The position numbers and the translations under genes were made by a program. This document shows, in pieces, positions 16,220 to 37,186 of a DNA stretch of 64,000 nt (positions within the stretch are counted from its first letter, which is position 1; each line of letters starts with the position of its first letter). The stretch spans positions 74,682 to 138,681 of the forward strand of contig JAUSCZ010000035.1 of the NCBI GenBank assembly GCA_030674475.1, given 5' to 3'. Under the pieces are notes generated by a model that was not told where the DNA came from, did not search any database, and saw only the letters and a program-made list of their open reading frames with translations. The stretch comes from Candidatus Omnitrophota bacterium (GTDB taxonomy: Bacteria > Omnitrophota > Gorgyraeia > Gygaellales > UBA12090).

Positions 16220-17864
16220 AAGTATATTTTTCGGTTTTCGCGTCCTTCCAGGAGTCAGCAGGCAAGCCTGCCTTATGAGCGCATAAATTAGAAAGGAACT
16301 CCTCCTTATTCCAGCCGGTCTCTTCAGCCACCTGAGGCAAAAATACCCCCTGGCTCCACCCCCGTTTGATCAACAAACCGTGCGTGCCTAACTGAAACTC
16401 AGCCACATCATCAATCTTTTTTAAAGGCGAGAGGACCGAAATTTCAATCTCAATATCCTTAAGCTCATCCTTGGTTACCGGCTCAAACCGGGGATCTCCG
16501 GTTGCCGACTCTATGGCCATATCCCTGATGGTTTCAAAAAGAGGCTTCTGGCCGATAATATTACCGATACAGCCTTTTAGCTTACCTTGCTTATGGATAG
16601 TTACAAAGGCACCGTTAATAGCCTTTAGCTGAGGATCATCTTCGCTAAAATCTAATTTTTTCCCGCTGGTTACATATTCCTGAATAGTCTTACGGGCAAT
16701 CTCCAGTAATCGCGCTTTCTGCGTATCATTCAACATAACTGTTTCTCCTGTCTTATCCTTATTAATTAAAGCTGATAAATACCCCACAGTCCACACCCCT
16801 TTTATCTTTTTACCGGAAACCTTAGCGGAATTAGTATGCCCCAAAAACTTTATTTGATTATAGCCTAAGCTTTGCGCGGTAAGTATCGCGCTGACCACCG
16901 GCAATCCCCCGCACATCTGGATTGAACCGTCTTTTAACTTCGCGTAAATATCCTGGGCAGACCCCGTTAGAAGCCTCTTACCGCTTTCAGATTGCTCCCC
17001 AGCTTCTAACGGGGCAGGCATCTTCCCTAAATAGGACAAAGTCAGCTTATCTACTCTCTCGGTTTCCTGGTAGTCATAACTGTGGCAAAGGTCCGTGGAA
17101 GCAATCAGCAACACATCTGAACGGCCCGCGATGGCTTTATTTAATATATCCGCCAAAACATTTAAACCGTGAAGGTCCGCGTCTCCAATCAAAATGGGAA
17201 CTATCTTAAAATCATCCAGGGTCTTTTGTAAGAAAGGAAGCTGAACCTCAATGGAATGTTCTTTTTCAAAAGCCTGAGGGATAAAGCTAATATTTTGGGA
17301 AGGAGAAATTATTTTTTGCGTAAAATCAGAGTCTACTTCTAGGTCTCCCAGGGGGGTTTGGAACTTACCGGATGGATATACTGAGACTCCCTTAAAATAA
17401 TACTGGTGACTGGGCCCCAGGAGGACCACGGTTTTATAAGGACGGCCTTTAATTAACTTATAGCCCAAGGCGGCGGTCGGCCCGGAGAAATCATAGCCGG
17501 CATGGGGAGAAATCAAACAAAATATTTCGCCTGTGGTGAGCGGTGGGTTGGCCGCGTTAAGCAGGTTTTCAACTTTATGGCTAAGCTCATCTTTATCCGC
17601 GGGATAAAACTGCCCGGCCACATTCGGTTTTTTTATCTCCTCGCCAAAGCTTAGGACATTAAAGCCAAAAAGCGCTCCCCCAAAAAAAAGGAAAAAAACA
17701 ATTGCTGTCCCTACTTTTCTCTTTGAAAAAAAGGAACTTCCCCCTTTCGTAAAGGGGGATGGAGGGGGATTTTCTAGGTTAGGGGAAATTTGGGAGCATT
17801 TACACAATGCACTAAGCCCAGATTCCGGCGATTGTTTCCTGACAAAACTTGCAATGCCCATCAA
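16185..17864 (-). CDS. AmmeMemoRadiSam system fusion protein: Memo1-like (protein B) plus AMMECR1 (protein A) domains, with N-terminal hydrophobic segment; start codon uncertain
   Basis: The Memo-like core is ISPHAGYDFSG...LCHSYDY. The AMMECR1 core is GAFVTIHKQGKLKGCIGNI...DPRF. A radical SAM partner is adjacent. Confidence 0.7.
   Translation of the reverse strand: MMGIASFVRKQSPESGLSALCKCSQISPNLENPPPSPFTKGGSSFFSKRKVGTAIVFFLFFGGALFGFNVLSFGEEIKKPNVAGQFYPADKDELSHKVENLLNAANPPLTTGEIFCLISPHAGYDFSGPTAALGYKLIKGRPYKTVVLLGPSHQYYFKGVSVYPSGKFQTPLGDLEVDSDFTQKIISPSQNISFIPQAFEKEHSIEVQLPFLQKTLDDFKIVPILIGDADLHGLNVLADILNKAIAGRSDVLLIASTDLCHSYDYQETERVDKLTLSYLGKMPAPLEAGEQSESGKRLLTGSAQDIYAKLKDGSIQMCGGLPVVSAILTAQSLGYNQIKFLGHTNSAKVSGKKIKGVWTVGYLSALINKDKTGETVMLNDTQKARLLEIARKTIQEYVTSGKKLDFSEDDPQLKAINGAFVTIHKQGKLKGCIGNIIGQKPLFETIRDMAIESATGDPRFEPVTKDELKDIEIEISVLSPLKKIDDVAEFQLGTHGLLIKRGWSQGVFLPQVAEETGWNKEEFLSNLCAHKAGLPADSWKDAKTEKYTFSALVFSEKKQ
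16961..17019. repeat. in-frame intragenic palindromic element, family B copy 1 (ACCCCGTTAGAAGCCTCTT...CTTCTAACGGGGCAGGC)
   Basis: About 85% identical to 35410-35470. Encodes MPAPLEAGEQSESGKRLLTGS in the middle of the Memo-AMMECR1 protein. Confidence 0.75.
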
Positions 17865-22481: not shown

Positions 22482-24200
22482 TTACTCTATTCCTGTAGTT
22501 ACCGATAAAATCTCTTCCAGGGAGGTAAGGCCGCTTTCAACTTTTTTTATTCCGCTCTGTAAAATTGTCTCCATCCCCGCGTCAATGGCGGCCTTGCGTA
22601 ATTCTTTGCTGGTAACCCGTTTTCCGATTAATTCCCGGATAGTGCTGTTTATGGTCATCACCTCGGCAACCAACATTCTACCCCGGTAGCCGATCTGATT
22701 ACAACTGGCGCAGCCTTTAGGCCGGTAAATCAGCTCCGCCTGAAGATTGAAATTACTGATATGCTCTTTGGTTGGCTCATAAGCCTCCTTGCAATCCGGA
22801 CAAAGTTTACGCACTAAGCGCTGAGCAACTACCACCAGAAGCGAAGGCATCAAAAGATACGATTCTATGCCTATATCCATAAGCCGGGTAATCGCTGAAG
22901 GCGCGTCGTTGGTATGTAAGGTAGAGAGCACTAGATGGCCGGTAAGCGCGGAACGAATGCAGATATCAGCTGTTTCCATATCCCGGACCTCGCCCACCAG
23001 CATTATATCCGGATCCTGCCTTAAAAATGAGCGTAGGGCGGCGGCAAAGGTAAGGCCTATTTCCGCTTTTACCTGCACCTGGTTAATCCCGTCTAAACGG
23101 TATTCCACCGGATCCTCGACAGTAATAATATTTTTAGTAGGGTCCTTAATCTCATTCAGGGCCGCGTATAAAGTAGTAGTCTTTCCGCTTCCGGTGGGCC
23201 CGGTAAGAAATACCAGGCCGTAGGGGGAATTAATTCCCTTACGGAAGGCCTCTAACTGCTTAGACTCAAAGCCCATGCCCGGAAGGTCAACATCCACCCG
23301 GGAACGGTCAAGTATCCTCATAACCACCTTCTCGCCGTAAATAAGCGGGATAATGGAGACGCGCAGATCTATTGACCGATCCCCCATGTTAACCCGGAAG
23401 GCCCCATCCTGAGGAAGGCGCTTTTCGGCTATATCCAACTTGGATAAAATCTTGATCCGGGAAATGATAGCCACGTGCAAGTGCCTGGCCGGAGGAGGAA
23501 TATCATAAAGCTTTCCGTCAATACGGTAGCGCAGGCGAATCTTATCCCGGTAAGGCTCGATATGAATATCCGACGCCCTTTCGTCTATGGACTGGCGGAT
23601 AATCAAATCTACCAGCTTTACCACCGGCGCGTCCTCGGCACTGGCAATCAGCCGGTCAATGCTCAGCATTGAATCAGGGCCGGCGGCGCTGGAATCCGCC
23701 CCCATATCATCTAAAGAATAAGAGTGTTTGACCGCCTCTTGAAGCAGATTAGACTTTCCATAGAAATAATCCGCCACCTGCAGGATGTCGGTCCTGGTGG
23801 CGATAACCGGATTAATATCACAGCCGGTCATCTTCTTAAGGTTATCCATCAGGGTCAGGTCCAGAGGGTCGGACAGGGCGCAGGTAAGGGAATTTAAATT
23901 TCGGGAAAGGGGCAGGACGATATTCTTCAAAGCAAAATCCATTGGGATAAGTTTATCTAATTCCTGGTCAAGCGCCGGCTTAAGCAGATTGGACTTTAAG
24001 GAGGCGTAAGGTATATTTAACTGCTTGGCCAACAGGCTGACAATATCCGCCTCACTGACCATGCCCAGCCTGGCCAGCACCTCGCCGAGGCGGCCACCTT
24101 CTTTTTTCTGGACCAGCATAGCCTGCTCCAGCTGATCCACGGTAATCAGACGCTCTTTTAAAAGCATCTCGCCAAGTTTAAGATAAATTGAATAAGACAT
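22482..24200 (-). CDS. pilB: type IV pilus / T2SS assembly ATPase (PilB/GspE family)
   Basis: GspII_E N-terminal domain, Walker A GPTGSGKTTTL, and a tetracysteine CPDC...CASC motif. Confidence 0.85.
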   Translation of the reverse strand: MSYSIYLKLGEMLLKERLITVDQLEQAMLVQKKEGGRLGEVLARLGMVSEADIVSLLAKQLNIPYASLKSNLLKPALDQELDKLIPMDFALKNIVLPLSRNLNSLTCALSDPLDLTLMDNLKKMTGCDINPVIATRTDILQVADYFYGKSNLLQEAVKHSYSLDDMGADSSAAGPDSMLSIDRLIASAEDAPVVKLVDLIIRQSIDERASDIHIEPYRDKIRLRYRIDGKLYDIPPPARHLHVAIISRIKILSKLDIAEKRLPQDGAFRVNMGDRSIDLRVSIIPLIYGEKVVMRILDRSRVDVDLPGMGFESKQLEAFRKGINSPYGLVFLTGPTGSGKTTTLYAALNEIKDPTKNIITVEDPVEYRLDGINQVQVKAEIGLTFAAALRSFLRQDPDIMLVGEVRDMETADICIRSALTGHLVLSTLHTNDAPSAITRLMDIGIESYLLMPSLLVVVAQRLVRKLCPDCKEAYEPTKEHISNFNLQAELIYRPKGCASCNQIGYRGRMLVAEVMTINSTIRELIGKRVTSKELRKAAIDAGMETILQSGIKKVESGLTSLEEILSVTTGIE

Positions 24201-28913: not shown

Positions 28914-29297
28914 CTATTTAAACAGCTCATCAATAATCGCGAAGTGCTTATCTAAGGTGAGAATTACTGCTTTATTCTCTTTGGCCAAAACTGCTAAATA
29001 ACAATCAATTAACGATATGGTTTTACCCTGTTTCCTGAGTTTGTTCGCTAAAAACCCTGCCTGTTGCCAGGTGGAATCACTCTCGTTCAAAATTTTAACT
29101 ACTGAAGCTAAATCCGAGATAAGCTCAGTTTCTTTTTCAGACCTAACCCCCTGGATCAATTCGGCCAGGACAAGCTGACAAGTGGCGGCAACATTAAGAA
29201 GGAGGGCTGATTCTATCTCTTTAGTTATGGGGTGAGAAGTTTTCTTAAGATACTCTATCCAGGCTGAGGTATCAATAAGAACTAATTTAGCGCTCAT
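28914..29297 (-). CDS. vapC: type II toxin VapC (PIN domain ribonuclease)
   Basis: LIDTSAWIEY with the conserved acidic Asp, ~127 aa, overlapping an upstream antitoxin gene. Confidence 0.8.
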   Translation of the reverse strand: MSAKLVLIDTSAWIEYLKKTSHPITKEIESALLLNVAATCQLVLAELIQGVRSEKETELISDLASVVKILNESDSTWQQAGFLANKLRKQGKTISLIDCYLAVLAKENKAVILTLDKHFAIIDELFK

Positions 29298-29694: not shown

Positions 29695-30090
29695 TCAACT
29701 AATGATATTTACTGACAGGTGCTTCCTGTAATTTTCAAAGTCGTTATCGGTAGTGAAAATTATGAGGTTTTCCAAATGAGCCACAGCGCAGATTAAAAAG
29801 TCTGTTGTAGAACCTTGAATCCCCCTGCTTCTGCAGATATTGCTGAATTCCGCCGCTTTCTCAAAATGCTCTTTTTTAAGAACAATATCTTCAAAAGCGG
29901 AAAGTATGTCTTTTAACTTATTGAACTGCTTGGAATCGGGGATCCCGGATAGAATTTCCTGCCTTACGGGACCTATTATAAAGACCCTGCCGTCATTGAT
30001 GAGGCCTTTTAACCTGGAGGTTAATTCTGCGTCAGGATTTCTATGCCGCAGGACAGCTGACCAAACGCAGGTATCAACCAGCACCTTCAT
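29695..30090 (-). CDS. vapC: type II toxin VapC (PIN domain), second copy
   Basis: MKVLVDTCVWSAVLRH..., ~131 aa, overlapping an upstream antitoxin. Confidence 0.8.
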   Translation of the reverse strand: MKVLVDTCVWSAVLRHRNPDAELTSRLKGLINDGRVFIIGPVRQEILSGIPDSKQFNKLKDILSAFEDIVLKKEHFEKAAEFSNICRSRGIQGSTTDFLICAVAHLENLIIFTTDNDFENYRKHLSVNIIS

Positions 30091-33317: not shown

Positions 33318-35054
33318 TTATTCCTTTATCTTTACAACATTTAAAGACAGGTATTCTACATTTACTTCAAAATCATCATAAAGCACACCGCAATATTCCA
33401 CTTTTGGAAGGAAATAATAAAGCCTTGCCTCGTAAGTCTTGCCCGGAGCTAAAACAATAGAGGGAACATAGGTCGTGCCAAGTATTGAGAATGTCGCGGA
33501 CAGACTCCTCACATTCATCATGCTTTTATGTACCGGCACACCTGATCCTTTCTCTGTAATTCCAACCAGGGTATAAAAATTTATTCCTTCATCAGTAATG
33601 TCGTGGTTAATTAATACCTGCCAGATAATATTCAAAGCTTCACCGGTCTTAGCTACAAATTCATAGGTAACCCCTTCATGTGTAGTGTCGGGGTAGGTAC
33701 CTTTAATTTCTCTAAACAGCCCTGGGTTATCAACCAAACACGAAGTAACATCACTGGCATATCCGGCACATTGGCCAGCAGTGTATGCAAGGCTATCACA
33801 ACCCGGACAGGCAGTCCTCTCCTCGCACTTACTTTCAGTACAATTTTTATCGAAACCTGGGTCTCTTGTTGTTTCCCCATCTTCAAGCATTACACCAGAG
33901 CACACATTCTCTTCGCAGCAGGACTTACTGTCCTCGCATCTCTCATAATTATTGGCATAAGCGCTACAAGCACTAATGCAAGTCTTAAACGCATCTTTGA
34001 GCTTGTAAGTATAGGATGCCACTTTCACCTTGGCGATGCATTCTACATATCCGTTACAAGTACAAGTATCGCAGGTAGTAACATAAGTTGTACTGCAAGA
34101 AGGAGGCGGCGGAGTCCAGGGAGGAGGCGGCGGAGTCCAAGAAGTACAAGTAGTTACAGGAACACTAACACAGTTACAACTATACGTGCAAGAGTCAGAC
34201 ACATTATCTACTATATTACTGCAAGAAGTAGCACTACTACTATTGCAATCCCCAGCCGGATCCCGAGAAGGACAACTATTGTCTAAGGTACAAGAAGAAC
34301 ATCCGACTGGTGTGCGAGATGTTCCGTCATTTTCCCAGACATAGGTTACATCATAATAAGAAGTCAAACCATCGCATCTGGGCGGGCCCGAATTCTCGGA
34401 ACAGGCCTGAAAAATAGGGCTGAGGCTTGGCCCGCAGGTTGCCGGACAACTCCAGATCCTATACCCATCAATATCGGTTCCTGTTACGGTACAGTCATCA
34501 GAGCAGTTTGGCGTCAGCTCATCGCTATCCGCGTCCGGACAACCTCGTCTCTGCAGGCCATAAGGAGAACCTGATGAAACTGAGCCAGAACTACAGGTAA
34601 GATTTTCACAATAAGTAGAATCGTCGCTTGATCTCGAACCGCCAGTACCTGTTGTGCCTACACCACATTCAGTTTGCGCGCAATCATCAACCTGAAAAGG
34701 AGGCTCAGTGCAATTATAATTAGCCAACGTATCATGATCACCTGAACTGCACTTAATTGCTTTGGGAAAAGAAGCAGTGGTCAAACAGCAATCCGGACAT
34801 TCCTTCTTAAGCTCAACACATTTATTACATTCTGAAACACTGCTAAGTGCGGTCGAACAATCTCCTCCGGTTAACAGATCTTTTCCGTCTAACTGGCTAA
34901 GAATTATTGGGTCAGTCCCGTAATCCTTGCTCTCTGTATCAGAAGTATAATTAGACGGCAGGTATTTTATGCGCTTATCCTTAGGATAGGCTGGGCTATT
35001 AAAGAAAGCCAGAAATAACAAGAGTAGAATTAAGGCCTTTTTATTTTTTACCAT
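33318..35054 (-). CDS. large secreted cysteine/threonine/serine-rich protein with PPPPWTPPPP motif; candidate pilus-tip adhesin
   Basis: Signal peptide, then a ~400-aa segment carrying dozens of Cys (CSSC, CTCNGYVEC, CCEENVC). The operon context with pseudopilins supports a pilus-associated role. Confidence 0.5.
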   Translation of the reverse strand: MVKNKKALILLLLFLAFFNSPAYPKDKRIKYLPSNYTSDTESKDYGTDPIILSQLDGKDLLTGGDCSTALSSVSECNKCVELKKECPDCCLTTASFPKAIKCSSGDHDTLANYNCTEPPFQVDDCAQTECGVGTTGTGGSRSSDDSTYCENLTCSSGSVSSGSPYGLQRRGCPDADSDELTPNCSDDCTVTGTDIDGYRIWSCPATCGPSLSPIFQACSENSGPPRCDGLTSYYDVTYVWENDGTSRTPVGCSSCTLDNSCPSRDPAGDCNSSSATSCSNIVDNVSDSCTYSCNCVSVPVTTCTSWTPPPPPWTPPPPSCSTTYVTTCDTCTCNGYVECIAKVKVASYTYKLKDAFKTCISACSAYANNYERCEDSKSCCEENVCSGVMLEDGETTRDPGFDKNCTESKCEERTACPGCDSLAYTAGQCAGYASDVTSCLVDNPGLFREIKGTYPDTTHEGVTYEFVAKTGEALNIIWQVLINHDITDEGINFYTLVGITEKGSGVPVHKSMMNVRSLSATFSILGTTYVPSIVLAPGKTYEARLYYFLPKVEYCGVLYDDFEVNVEYLSLNVVKIKE

Positions 35055-35473
35055 TGGTCACATCCAGTTCTATTAATAAGGCCGCCTTGGTTAGTAATAG
35101 TCATATTCCTACCACTACAGGCCAAACCGGAAACCGCGCGGGTAGCCGTGGCAGTAAAGCTTGGGCTGGTGGTGGCGTTAATAGAATAAGTAAAACTGTC
35201 TCCTTCTAAATCAATCCCTAAATTCTCAGTATCATTAGTATACTCTCCCTCGTTCAAATAATACCTCTGCTGGGCAGAGTAGATTAATTGCAGGTTAGCC
35301 TCGGCTTCTTTGGCCTTATTTTTCTCTGAAGATCGGCTAAAATTACCCATATTCAGGCTAACCAAAATCCCGATAATTACCAAAACCACCAGCAACTCAA
35401 TCATAGTAAACCCCGTTAGAAGCCTCTTGCCTCTTACAGGTTGCTCATTAACTTCTAACGGGGCAGGCCCCAT
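35048..35473 (-). CDS. type IV pilin with 21-aa leader (ORF track starts at TTG 35485; ATG at 35473 has an AGGAGA SD upstream)
   Basis: ...GKRLLTG|FTMIELLVVLVIIGILVS prepilin cleavage/methylation site. Confidence 0.7.
   Translation of the reverse strand: MGPAPLEVNEQPVRGKRLLTGFTMIELLVVLVIIGILVSLNMGNFSRSSEKNKAKEAEANLQLIYSAQQRYYLNEGEYTNDTENLGIDLEGDSFTYSINATTSPSFTATATRAVSGLACSGRNMTITNQGGLINRTGCDQW
35410..35470. repeat. family B palindromic element copy 2, encoding the pilin leader peptide
   Basis: About 85% identical to 16961-17019. The CCCCGTTAGAAG / CTTCTAACGGGG arms are an inverted repeat. Confidence 0.75.
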
Positions 35474-36091
35474 TTTCACTTGCAAATCTCCTTATAAGTG
35501 CGATAAATCGCACCGCTACGCAACATGAGATAAATCGCCTACCTGCGGTAAGCAGGCACCGCTACGCGACATGAGTGACCCACGGTAGGCGGAGGTAAAA
35601 CCCGCGCCCTTATCACTCCCAAGGAGCAACTGCATCTCAGAGTATCGGTATAACCAACTCAAGAACAGACTTTTAAAAACTCCTGCTATAATAAAAAACC
35701 AAGCTCTACTTTTTAAGGGTAGCTTGGCTTCGCACTCTAAGAATAAAACCGAGTGCTCTTTTCTTGTTTGAGCTTAACAACTTGGCTTTATTCTGGTTTT
35801 AAAGTTAAGTTGTCGGTGCGCCAGGCTACCTTATCCAGAGGGCTTTCCCCTCCTTTACTTCTGGTAAGACTTAGGTCCTTTAGCTTTGCGCCCCGCGGTT
35901 TCCCGCGGTTTGCCCCGGCCTTAATTTCCTGTGCCGGCCTACCGGTTTCCTGTTTGCGCGGTAGATTTTCGGATGTGGTAATTAAAGTATACACCATAAA
36001 AGAACTAATTACAAGGGTAAAACCGCCTTTTCAGGAAAGCGCTTTCTTGGGAGGAATTTTATCGGTTGAACTCTTTGGTTATCGCTTAGCT

Positions 36092-36949
36092 TTACCTTTC
36101 CCGCAGGAAATTCTCCTTTATGAAATCAATCAGGTATTCGTAAAGCGGCTGGGAGGTTTTTATAAATCCCTCTATCTGCTGCCAGCGGATATCCAGATAT
36201 TCATGGGTAATCATATTCCTTAACCCCGCGAACCTGCCCAGCTTCTCGGCAGTGTTTTTATCAAAATCTTTCAGCAAAGACAGCGATTTCAGGATCTCTT
36301 TATATTTCTCCGGCAGGCGGATTTTCTCTGAGGCCAGAACAATCTCGGCGATGTCAATCGAACAAAGCGCGATGCCTTCCGCCCAATGCTCAACATTTCT
36401 TTTTTTGCCGCGATCAGACTCATAAAGGGATTGATTAAGCTCCCGGAATTCCTCGTAAGATTTTAATTCTTCTTCCAGGAAATCAATCAAAACCTCCAAC
36501 TGTTCTTTATCTTCCAGGCTTAATGATTTTGACCTTTCCCGAATCCGCCTATAGTCTTGAATAAATTCTTTAAAATCCGCGGACGCGGAATTAATGGTTA
36601 GGAAGAATCGCCAATACAGGGAACGGTCTTTTATAAATATGGGCAGGCCGGTCTTTAGAACCTTGGAAGCCATCGTGCTTGCTGCCCGGTTTAAAACCAG
36701 AAGGTCAACTTCTCTATCCAGAAGATTTTCCAGTTCCCGCCATATCCGGTCTTCTTCGGGATAAAAGGTGTCTTCTTCCCATTCAAGAGCCCTGCCCGCC
36801 GGATTAAAATAAACCGCGATATCCATATCAGAATCCGGCAGGTGCTGGCCTTTGGCAAAAGAGCCGAAAATAAAGGCCATAGAGATATTTTTTTGGTTTT
36901 TGAAATACTCTTTTAACTCTTGGATCTTGACCTTTACCGGCGTTATCAT
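36092..36949 (-). CDS. nucleotidyltransferase (MNT, Pol-beta superfamily) fused to HEPN (DUF86-like) domain
   Basis: N-terminal GSFAKG...DSDMDIAV nucleotidyltransferase motif, with a C-terminal RNMITHEY (Rx4H HEPN motif). Confidence 0.65.
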   Translation of the reverse strand: MITPVKVKIQELKEYFKNQKNISMAFIFGSFAKGQHLPDSDMDIAVYFNPAGRALEWEEDTFYPEEDRIWRELENLLDREVDLLVLNRAASTMASKVLKTGLPIFIKDRSLYWRFFLTINSASADFKEFIQDYRRIRERSKSLSLEDKEQLEVLIDFLEEELKSYEEFRELNQSLYESDRGKKRNVEHWAEGIALCSIDIAEIVLASEKIRLPEKYKEILKSLSLLKDFDKNTAEKLGRFAGLRNMITHEYLDIRWQQIEGFIKTSQPLYEYLIDFIKENFLRER

Positions 36950-36976: not shown

Positions 36977-37186
36977 TTATCTCCTCAGGGAAATATTATA
37001 ATCACTGCCCTCCTGGCTTAAGATTATATGGCCTTCCCTGGCCAGCCAGCCCATACTCATTAAAAGTAAGTCCTTGGGCTGGTCTATGTCTTTGCATAGG
37101 CGGCTCAAGACTGCGCTTCCATGATGCTGATCCAGATAATGCCAGATATCTCCGGCGGTAATGCCTATTTCAGTAATCATATCCAC
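36977..37186 (-). CDS. hypothetical small protein, possible winged-helix regulator partner of the MNT-HEPN gene
   Basis: 69 aa, 27 nt upstream of the MNT-HEPN gene on the same strand. Confidence 0.35.
   Translation of the reverse strand: MDMITEIGITAGDIWHYLDQHHGSAVLSRLCKDIDQPKDLLLMSMGWLAREGHIILSQEGSDYNISLRR

Follow-up and report, generated by a model that had tools for sequence, protein, structure and literature searches.

Positions 35486-36091 of the window (the whole 64-kb stretch of Omnitrophota contig JAUSCZ010000035.1 that was analysed) form the interval between two minus-strand genes. Upstream, at 36092-36949, lies a gene for an MNT-HEPN fusion of a nucleotidyltransferase with a HepT-like domain (Pfam Polbeta/NTP_transf_2 and HepT-like). 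Downstream, within an open reading frame (ORF) at 35048-35485 whose probable coding part is 35048-35479, lies a gene for a type IV pilin-like protein (Pfam N_methyl, Pilin_GH, and ComP_DUS). An earlier reading of the letters alone (the original prediction) described the interval as gene free and holding either a long structured leader or an unclassified noncoding RNA. The absence of credible genes is borne out: the ORFs in the interval (35753-36223 on the plus strand, 35788-35997 and 35516-35662 on the minus strand) have no Pfam match even at E ≤ 1, for which reason a protein-coding reading was rejected. The leader assignment also holds, as a minus-strand RNA on the same strand as the pilin operon, lying between a conserved promoter and the pilin start codon. 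The RNA can no longer be called unclassified, because the Rfam/Infernal scan proposed with that prediction places its core in the c-di-GMP-I family (RF01051) with a score above the curated gathering threshold. We regard the region, with a probability of about 0.8, as the minus-strand 5' untranslated leader of a type IV pilus-like operon that carries a class I cyclic di-GMP (c-di-GMP) riboswitch and a terminator, the pilin-like gene being the first one under the riboswitch.

The whole window was scanned against Rfam at gathering thresholds, and positions 35300-36300 were also searched in a permissive local scan at E ≤ 10. The first scan returned two matches, a tRNA elsewhere and the c-di-GMP-I (GEMM-I) aptamer at 35812-35924 on the minus strand, which scores 47.0 bits against a gathering score of 35. 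This match covers model positions 1 to 87 of 87 without truncation (E = 4.7e-6 for the whole window and 7.3e-8 in the local scan); the other families matched in the local scan, at E > 0.8 and far under their gathering scores, are noise. The window holds no RNase P RNA or tmRNA by the Rfam scan, in agreement with the original prediction, and both were rejected as candidates, as were group I and group II introns, none of them having been found. A group I intron beside the aptamer, of the kind that forms the allosteric ribozyme of Clostridioides difficile, has no match in 35300-36300 even at E ≤ 10.

In the alignment to the model, the strongly conserved consensus positions are all matched (GGCAAAC, the GAAA tetraloop, CGCAAAGC, CCUAAG, AGCC..GGC, and CCGA). 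The P2 hairpin, CCGCGG-GAAA-CCGCGG at 35893-35908, is capped by a GNRA tetraloop, and its reverse complement is the GC-rich tract already pointed out in this region, which is real (35892-35917) and contains two tandem copies of CCCGCGGTTT (35892-35911). The P3 receptor motif reads CCUAAG on the 5' strand and AUAAGG on the 3' strand, compared with a consensus of uAuGa, i.e., with one change at a variable position. The sole unusual feature of the aptamer is a 28-nucleotide (nt) lineage-specific extension at the tip of P3 (35834-35861). The junction segments GGGGCAAACC, CGCAAAGC, and CACCGAC agree with the upper-case consensus, and we take these positions to be the equivalents of the ligand contacts G20, A47, and C92 in the structure of the Vc2 aptamer of Vibrio cholerae. 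A GGGG run (35913-35916 in the minus-strand RNA) lies directly 5' of the conserved CAAA and presumably puts a G at the position equivalent to Vc2 G20. Every sequence and structure feature of c-di-GMP-I membership that can be tested is present, including the placement in the 5' untranslated region on the same strand, together with an expression platform. Judged by these features, the element is a c-di-GMP-I riboswitch, a member of a known RNA class, and its sequence suggests that it binds c-di-GMP.

Syntenic contigs from groundwater metagenomes (L008-L018) were reached via homologs of a 578-amino-acid protein encoded downstream of the pilin gene, and more distant loci (L019-L029) through the adjacent DUF2582 gene; an exact look-up of the MNT-HEPN protein returned the source contig only. 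By the source names attached to DUF2582 homologs, the lineage belongs to Candidatus Omnitrophica. L013 carries the same riboswitch, with a score of 51.8 bits. The contig of L015 begins inside the 3' half of the aptamer and has the terminator after a much shorter spacer. L017 has the promoter block, the first part of the transcribed leader, and the ribosome-binding region in common with the window, but neither a riboswitch nor a terminator. No riboswitch is found in L009-L011, where the pilin gene directly follows an HD-GYP-type (HD_5) gene, or in L019-L029.

The promoter scan finds a single promoter-like site upstream of the aptamer, a minus-strand sigma-70-like promoter at 35986-36014 (-35 at 36014, -10 at 35986) with the hexamers TTGTAA and TATACT separated by a 17-nt spacer; both hexamers are kept in L013 and L017. 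Transcription probably starts near 35979, judging from the promoter sequence. Immediately upstream, a block at 36015-36055 on the minus strand is approximately 92% identical to L013 and is kept in L017 too, and the sequence farther upstream is wholly different. Within this block lies the near-palindrome GAAAGCGCTTTC (36034-36045), and the block may act as an operator or an UP-like element. The AGGAAAGC/GCTTTCCT palindrome reported earlier exists as an inverted repeat, albeit an imperfect one that reads CAGGAAAGCGCTTTCTTG at 36032-36049 and is 90% complementary. Between the likely start and the aptamer, predicted folds contain a 5'-proximal stem, CUACCG...CGGUAG (35938-35965, minus strand), whose arms are kept in the relatives (CUACC..GGUAG in L013 and CUAC-CGCG-GUAG in L017) with a different interior loop in each. 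A second promoter after the terminator was considered and rejected: the lone promoter-like match there overlaps the AT-rich terminator tail, and the number of matches is at chance level.

Downstream of the aptamer lies a predicted intrinsic terminator (35690-35731, minus strand), with a stem AAGCCAAGCU.../...AGCUUGGUUU at 35695-35731 followed by UUUUUUAUU, the U-run being at 35693-35698. The hairpin has a predicted energy of -14.5 kcal/mol in the window and -14.5 to -16.3 kcal/mol across the loci; L013 and L015 have equivalent U-run hairpins in which the base changes preserve pairing. The 5' strand of the terminator belongs to a shared strand, GUGCGAAGCCAAGCUACC (35719-35737), that also serves as the 3' strand of a predicted antiterminator. 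The 5' strand of that antiterminator, AGGUAGCCUGGCGCAC (35816-35831), is the 3' strand of aptamer P3 plus the junction and is complementary to 35719-35737. Within the 326 nt downstream, the best duplex partner of the aptamer 3' strand is exactly the terminator 5' strand (9 of 300 shuffles gave an equal or better duplex), and the antiterminator duplex is worth -21 to -22 kcal/mol. In all three loci, the window, L013, and L015, a transcript that stops short of the terminator 3' strand has this duplex in its minimum-energy structure when no constraint is imposed on the fold. When the aptamer pairs are enforced in the fold, the terminator forms instead. A spacer hairpin, AGAAUAAAGCCAAGU/ACUCGGUUUUAUUCU (35740-35794, minus strand; an inverted repeat of 15 nt, 87% complementary), occurs in both predicted states, and its one mismatch is changed to a G-C pair in L013. 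This hairpin is missing from L015, where the spacer is 21 nt long versus 76 nt in the window, and the antiterminator pairing is preserved there despite the short spacer.

These folds also bear on what had been said of the region as a whole. The description of it as structured is right for the aptamer and platform (35690-35930, minus strand; z = -4.2, with 0 of 200 shuffles as stable) and barely so for the distal half (35480-35690; z = -1.85, with 8 of 200 shuffles as stable). That it is richer in GC is only modestly true, with values of 0.49 to 0.51 in two 200-nt subwindows versus approximately 0.40 to 0.45 nearby. The hairpin GCACTC-N13-GAGTGC does exist, at 35733-35757, but is probably not a working structure, because in the constrained folds its arms are taken by the spacer hairpin and the antiterminator; the same folds dispense with a ACAACUUAACUUUA/UAAAGCCAAGUUGU hairpin. 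Both hairpins were rejected as switching elements, as neither overlaps the terminator so as to block it.

The arrangement suggests the following mechanism. Transcription would start near 35979 at the conserved sigma-70-like promoter, so that the aptamer (35924 to 35812) is made and folds first and the terminator next. Without c-di-GMP, the aptamer 3' strand (35831-35816) would pair with the terminator 5' strand (35737-35719) into the antiterminator, and RNA polymerase would read through into the pilin gene. With c-di-GMP bound, that strand would be held within the aptamer, the terminator would form, and transcription would stop before the pilin gene. Because the free aptamer strand is predicted to give the antiterminator and the bound aptamer the terminator, we read the element as an OFF switch. 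Provided that the riboswitch is functional, transcriptional control in this direction appears fairly probable from the folding models.

Compared with L013, the conservation of the locus, as seen in the alignment, is a mosaic. Identity is 95% in the DUF2582 gene, 92% in the promoter block, 100% in the aptamer core, 91% in the spacer, 94% in the terminator, and 89% in the pilin coding sequence; no alignment is possible in the 5' linker, the P3 tip, or the distal leader. The changes that inform on pairing are few, given that L013 is identical in the core and L015 is partial: an A-U pair of P1 becomes U.G, the spacer mismatch becomes G-C, and the L015 terminator changes preserve pairing.

Several observations count against this interpretation of the leader. 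The evidence from covariation is very thin, as only two related copies of the riboswitch were recovered and both are close (89 to 95% identity in the flanking genes). L017 runs the same operon from the same promoter without the riboswitch, and the more distant relatives lack it too; therefore, it is dispensable for the operon. The approximately 210 nt that lie between the terminator and the start codon have no explained role. Finally, the terminator is already present in the minimum-energy fold of the full-length transcript when no ligand constraint is set, so that the thermodynamic predictions, which leave out ligand and tertiary energies, leave the switching direction unsettled, and an OFF response of pili is the opposite of what is seen with pilA1 of C. 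difficile. In that organism, class I c-di-GMP riboswitches are OFF switches and pilA1 is under a class II ON switch (PMC6200980).

The last two points are also the ones that would favor an ON switch built on the same c-di-GMP-I aptamer, with the ligand promoting read-through or translation of the pilin operon. Such a response would match the rise of type IV pilus expression with c-di-GMP in C. difficile (PMC6200980), and the near-complete tandem c-di-GMP-binding motif in the MshEN domain of the PilB ATPase of this cluster fits pili that are favored at high c-di-GMP. We nevertheless consider it unlikely. No sequence was found that would specifically sequester either terminator strand when the aptamer is folded, and the terminator still forms with the aptamer enforced. 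The sole strong competitor for the terminator 5' strand is the aptamer 3' strand, which is free only if the aptamer is unfolded, and the pilA1 precedent belongs to class II, the class I switches of the same organism being OFF (PMC6200980). Less probable still is that the aptamer is a decaying relic in a long spacer with no regulatory role, which the working of the operon without a riboswitch in L017 and in the more distant relatives might suggest. A relic would hardly keep all conserved core positions intact, with a score 12 bits above the gathering threshold, or a core 100% identical to that of L013 while the adjacent leader segments were replaced, or an antiterminator-terminator pair preserved in three loci, one of them with a different spacer. 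As for a small protein encoded by the ORF at 35753-36223 (plus) or at 35788-35997 (minus), the reading frames of 156 and 69 codons are indeed there, and yet this is an extremely improbable explanation: the frames without Pfam matches are antisense to each other, the 156-codon one runs into the MNT-HEPN gene on the opposite strand, and conservation tracks the RNA modules, not a reading frame.

The identity of the ligand could also differ from the one assumed here. GEMM-I aptamers of altered specificity exist, and one that responds to a different cyclic dinucleotide, 3'3'-cyclic GMP-AMP (3'3'-cGAMP) for instance, might be considered. The equivalent of Vc2 G20 is described as contributing to selectivity without acting as a hard filter (PMC9262584). 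Against this stands the scoring of the region, in which plain c-di-GMP-I is the best-scoring family of its clan. The base at the G20-equivalent position is a G here, which favors c-di-GMP over cGAMP; in the cGAMP riboswitches of Geobacter, the cGAMP-selective variant has an A there. We find a ligand other than c-di-GMP very unlikely.

Beyond the terminator, the leader runs on to a Shine-Dalgarno sequence, AAGGAG (35488-35493), and to the pilin gene, which probably starts at the GTG at 35477-35479, all on the minus strand, with 8 nt between GGAG and GTG. In the relatives, the pilin genes start with GTG/TTG-AAA-AC(A/G)-GG(G/A), which gives (V/L)KTG|FTMIEL. Adjoining the ribosome-binding site is a hairpin, GUGCGA-UUUA-UCGCAC (35498-35513, minus strand), preceded by GUAGCG. 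The motif GUAGCGGYGCGAUUUAUCGCRC just upstream of the ribosome-binding site is also found in L008, L015, and L017, i.e., in four related leaders including that of the window, and in L015 a double change of the hairpin to GCGCGA..UCGCGC replaces a U-A pair by C-G in a compensatory manner. The remainder, a hypervariable distal leader at 35514-35689 on the minus strand, holds 20-nt direct repeats and a CGCCUACC/GGUAGGCG stem. Beyond the first approximately 25 nt after the terminator, it has no counterpart in L013, L015, and L017, save for the approximately 22-nt motif beside the ribosome-binding site, and no Rfam match at E ≤ 10.

It is in this segment that the repeats most stressed in the original prediction are located. 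The direct repeats GCACCGCTACGC(A/G)ACATGAG are real, the coordinates given for them being a few bases off: the 20-nt copies lie at 35510-35529 and 35556-35575, are 95% identical, and represent two matches in the window versus 0.01 expected. They arise from a local duplication of approximately 46 nt, one copy of which has a 19-nt insert. The inverted pair CGCCTACC (35537-35544)/GGTAGGCG (35584-35591) is likewise in the sequence, with perfect complementarity over 8 bp only. Both features are missing from the related leaders and lie outside the riboswitch, and on this comparison the direct repeats and the CGCCTACC stem are a lineage-specific duplication and not a part of the conserved RNA. Searches of genome and metagenome collections with the 20-nt repeat, GCACCGCTACGCRACATGAG, gave 4 and 2 single-copy matches, respectively, in unrelated organisms and with flanks that cannot be aligned, which we estimate to be about the chance level for 19 fixed bases in approximately 600 Gb.

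One could still see in the distal leader (35486-35690), with its duplicated CUCAUGUYGCGUAGCGGUGC, its CGAUUUAUC repeats, and the hairpin on the side of the ribosome-binding site, a further regulatory RNA or a binding element for a protein, of an unclassified kind, that works in series with the riboswitch. The repeat is far above chance in the window, CGAUUUAUC occurs twice in the window and twice in L015, and the motif shared by the four leaders includes a compensatory pair change. Set against the lack of counterparts for everything but that motif, the weak folding signal, the lack of Rfam matches, and the isolated chance matches of the repeat in the collections, this alternative seems unlikely. 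A somewhat more speculative version, which we would hold quite unlikely, makes the leader a two-stage regulator in which the riboswitch cassette is a gain-or-loss module between the promoter-proximal stem and GUAGCGGYGCGAUUUAUCGCRC. The motif adjoining the ribosome-binding site, duplicated in this genome, would then, with no better odds, be the site of a second regulator, the DUF2582 winged-helix protein or an RNA-binding factor being candidates. If such a scheme were true, pilin expression would combine c-di-GMP with a second signal.

Returning to the class I c-di-GMP riboswitch, the association of this class with motility and surface genes, including those for pili, has long been established. 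Like Vc2 of V. cholerae and Cd1 (Cdi-1-3) of C. difficile, the element described here has the features of RF01051 in the GAAA tetraloop of P2, the CCUAAG receptor of P3, and the junction nucleotides. It also shares with them a same-strand location in the 5' untranslated region of a surface or motility gene and a terminator-based platform, and it is predicted to act as an OFF switch like the class I elements of C. difficile (PMC6200980). It differs from Vc2 and Cd1 in the 28-nt P3-tip extension, the uncultivated Omnitrophota-like host, the control of a pilin operon, the 76-nt gap between aptamer and terminator with its spacer hairpin, and the variable leader of approximately 210 nt after the terminator. 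Cdi-2-4, upstream of pilA1, is likewise a c-di-GMP riboswitch that acts on transcription read-through from the leader of a gene for a type IV pilin (PMC6200980); however, it belongs to class II, with an unrelated fold, and is an ON switch, whereas the present element is of class I and is predicted to be OFF. The Bc1 riboswitch of the Bacillus cereus group resembles it in combining a class I aptamer with an unusually long expression platform or leader (PMC11218506). Bc1 has two terminators 28 bp apart, whereas the present leader yielded a single convincing one, and conservation is lacking in the long stretch that remains. What is mildly unusual is the lineage of the host, a leader that continues long and hypervariable past the terminator, and a riboswitch cassette that varies among close relatives with a common promoter.

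Thus, what appeared as an unknown structured RNA receives a specific annotation as a c-di-GMP riboswitch of class I that would gate the type IV pilus-like operon of a groundwater bacterium from an uncultivated, Omnitrophota-like lineage; known riboswitch mechanisms are not altered by it. The annotation points to c-di-GMP as a means by which this lineage controls its surface appendages, which are thought to be important for attachment or for the host-dependent lifestyle proposed for these small cells. The locus is of modest evolutionary interest as well, in that the presence of the cassette differs among close relatives with one promoter and the leader changes fast via small palindromic insertions.

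The pilin gene is followed by genes for the 578-amino-acid protein and a 330-amino-acid protein, both without an assigned function, and for minor pilins, an order shared by L008-L018. Next in the window come two inserted PIN toxin genes and then the genes for PilM, PilO, a secretin, a PilB ATPase that has an MshEN domain, and PilC, along with those for further pilins. The PIN toxin genes (28914-29297 and 29695-30090) interrupt the pilus cluster in comparison to L009 and L012, much as the MNT-HEPN gene, judged to be a recent insertion in this genome because L013 and L017 have no such gene separating DUF2582 from the pilin leader, interrupts the upstream part of the locus. The MshEN domain of the PilB-type ATPase (22482-24200, minus strand; Pfam) carries, at residues 8-60, two 24-residue motifs linked by a 5-residue spacer, KLGEMLLKERLITVDQLEQAMLVQ - KKEGG - RLGEVLARLGMVSEADIVSLLAKQ. 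Motif II is close to the published c-di-GMP-binding consensus, with Ala and Ile at two hydrophobic positions; in motif I, K replaces R and a conserved Gly is missing. Judging by its sequence, this domain may feed c-di-GMP into the same machine a second time. A regular-expression search of the window ORFs for GGDEF, EAL, HD-GYP, and PilZ motifs gave nothing convincing and so located no genes of c-di-GMP metabolism in the window. In L009 (4239-5576) and L010, which have no riboswitch, the pilin operon comes directly after two HD-domain genes, one of them HD_5 (HD-GYP-like), and these neighbors may be another tie of the pilus system to c-di-GMP turnover.

The DUF2582 winged-helix gene (36977-37186) precedes the pilus genes both in the window and in each of the recovered loci with enough upstream sequence. 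It is directly upstream of the leader in L013 and L017, is separated from it by MNT-HEPN in the window, and is followed by one small gene before the pilus genes in the more distant relatives. Its product is a candidate transcription regulator of the operon, and, as pure conjecture, its operator could be GAAAGCGCTTTC (36034-36045), which lies ahead of the -35 hexamer.

Contigs L008, L012, L014, L015, L016, and L018 end inside or beside the leader or the start of the pilin gene: L008 begins exactly at GTAGCGGTGCGATTTATC, L015 inside the aptamer, and L018 at the FTMIEL codons. These breaks are consistent with strain-level heterogeneity of the leader that fragments assemblies. In L013 (1060-1090), the usual pilin GTG is out of frame owing to two extra A's in an A-run (GTGAAAAAACGGGG versus GTGAAAACGGGG), which might reflect an error of sequencing, slippage, or genuine variation. 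The called pilin gene thus begins 113 nt upstream there and reads through a palindromic insertion.

That insertion, at 1005-1055 in the leader of L013, is a G/C-run palindrome (AATCCCC..CCCCCTTTGTAAAAGGGGG..GGGGGATT), and another such palindrome, CCCCCTTTCGTAAAGGGGG, is found at 17740-17758 of the window near the start of a Memo-like ORF. A palindromic element of approximately 57 nt, with perfect 12-bp arms (CCCCGTTAGAAG ... CTTCTAACGGGG), is present in two copies, at 35411-35463 and 16962-17014, which are 86% identical over 59 nt and are inserted, with the reading frame kept, in genes unrelated to each other. The copy in the pilin gene extends the prepilin leader peptide from the (V/L)KTG|FTMIEL of the relatives to VKMG-PAPLEVNEQPVRGKRLLTG|FTMIEL; the one in a gene for a 559-amino-acid Memo/AMMECR1 fusion encodes MPAPLEAGEQSESGKRLLTGS. 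This behavior is similar to that of the palindromic elements of Rickettsia that insert in frame. In this lineage, small palindromic insertions seem to strike leaders and the starts of genes often.

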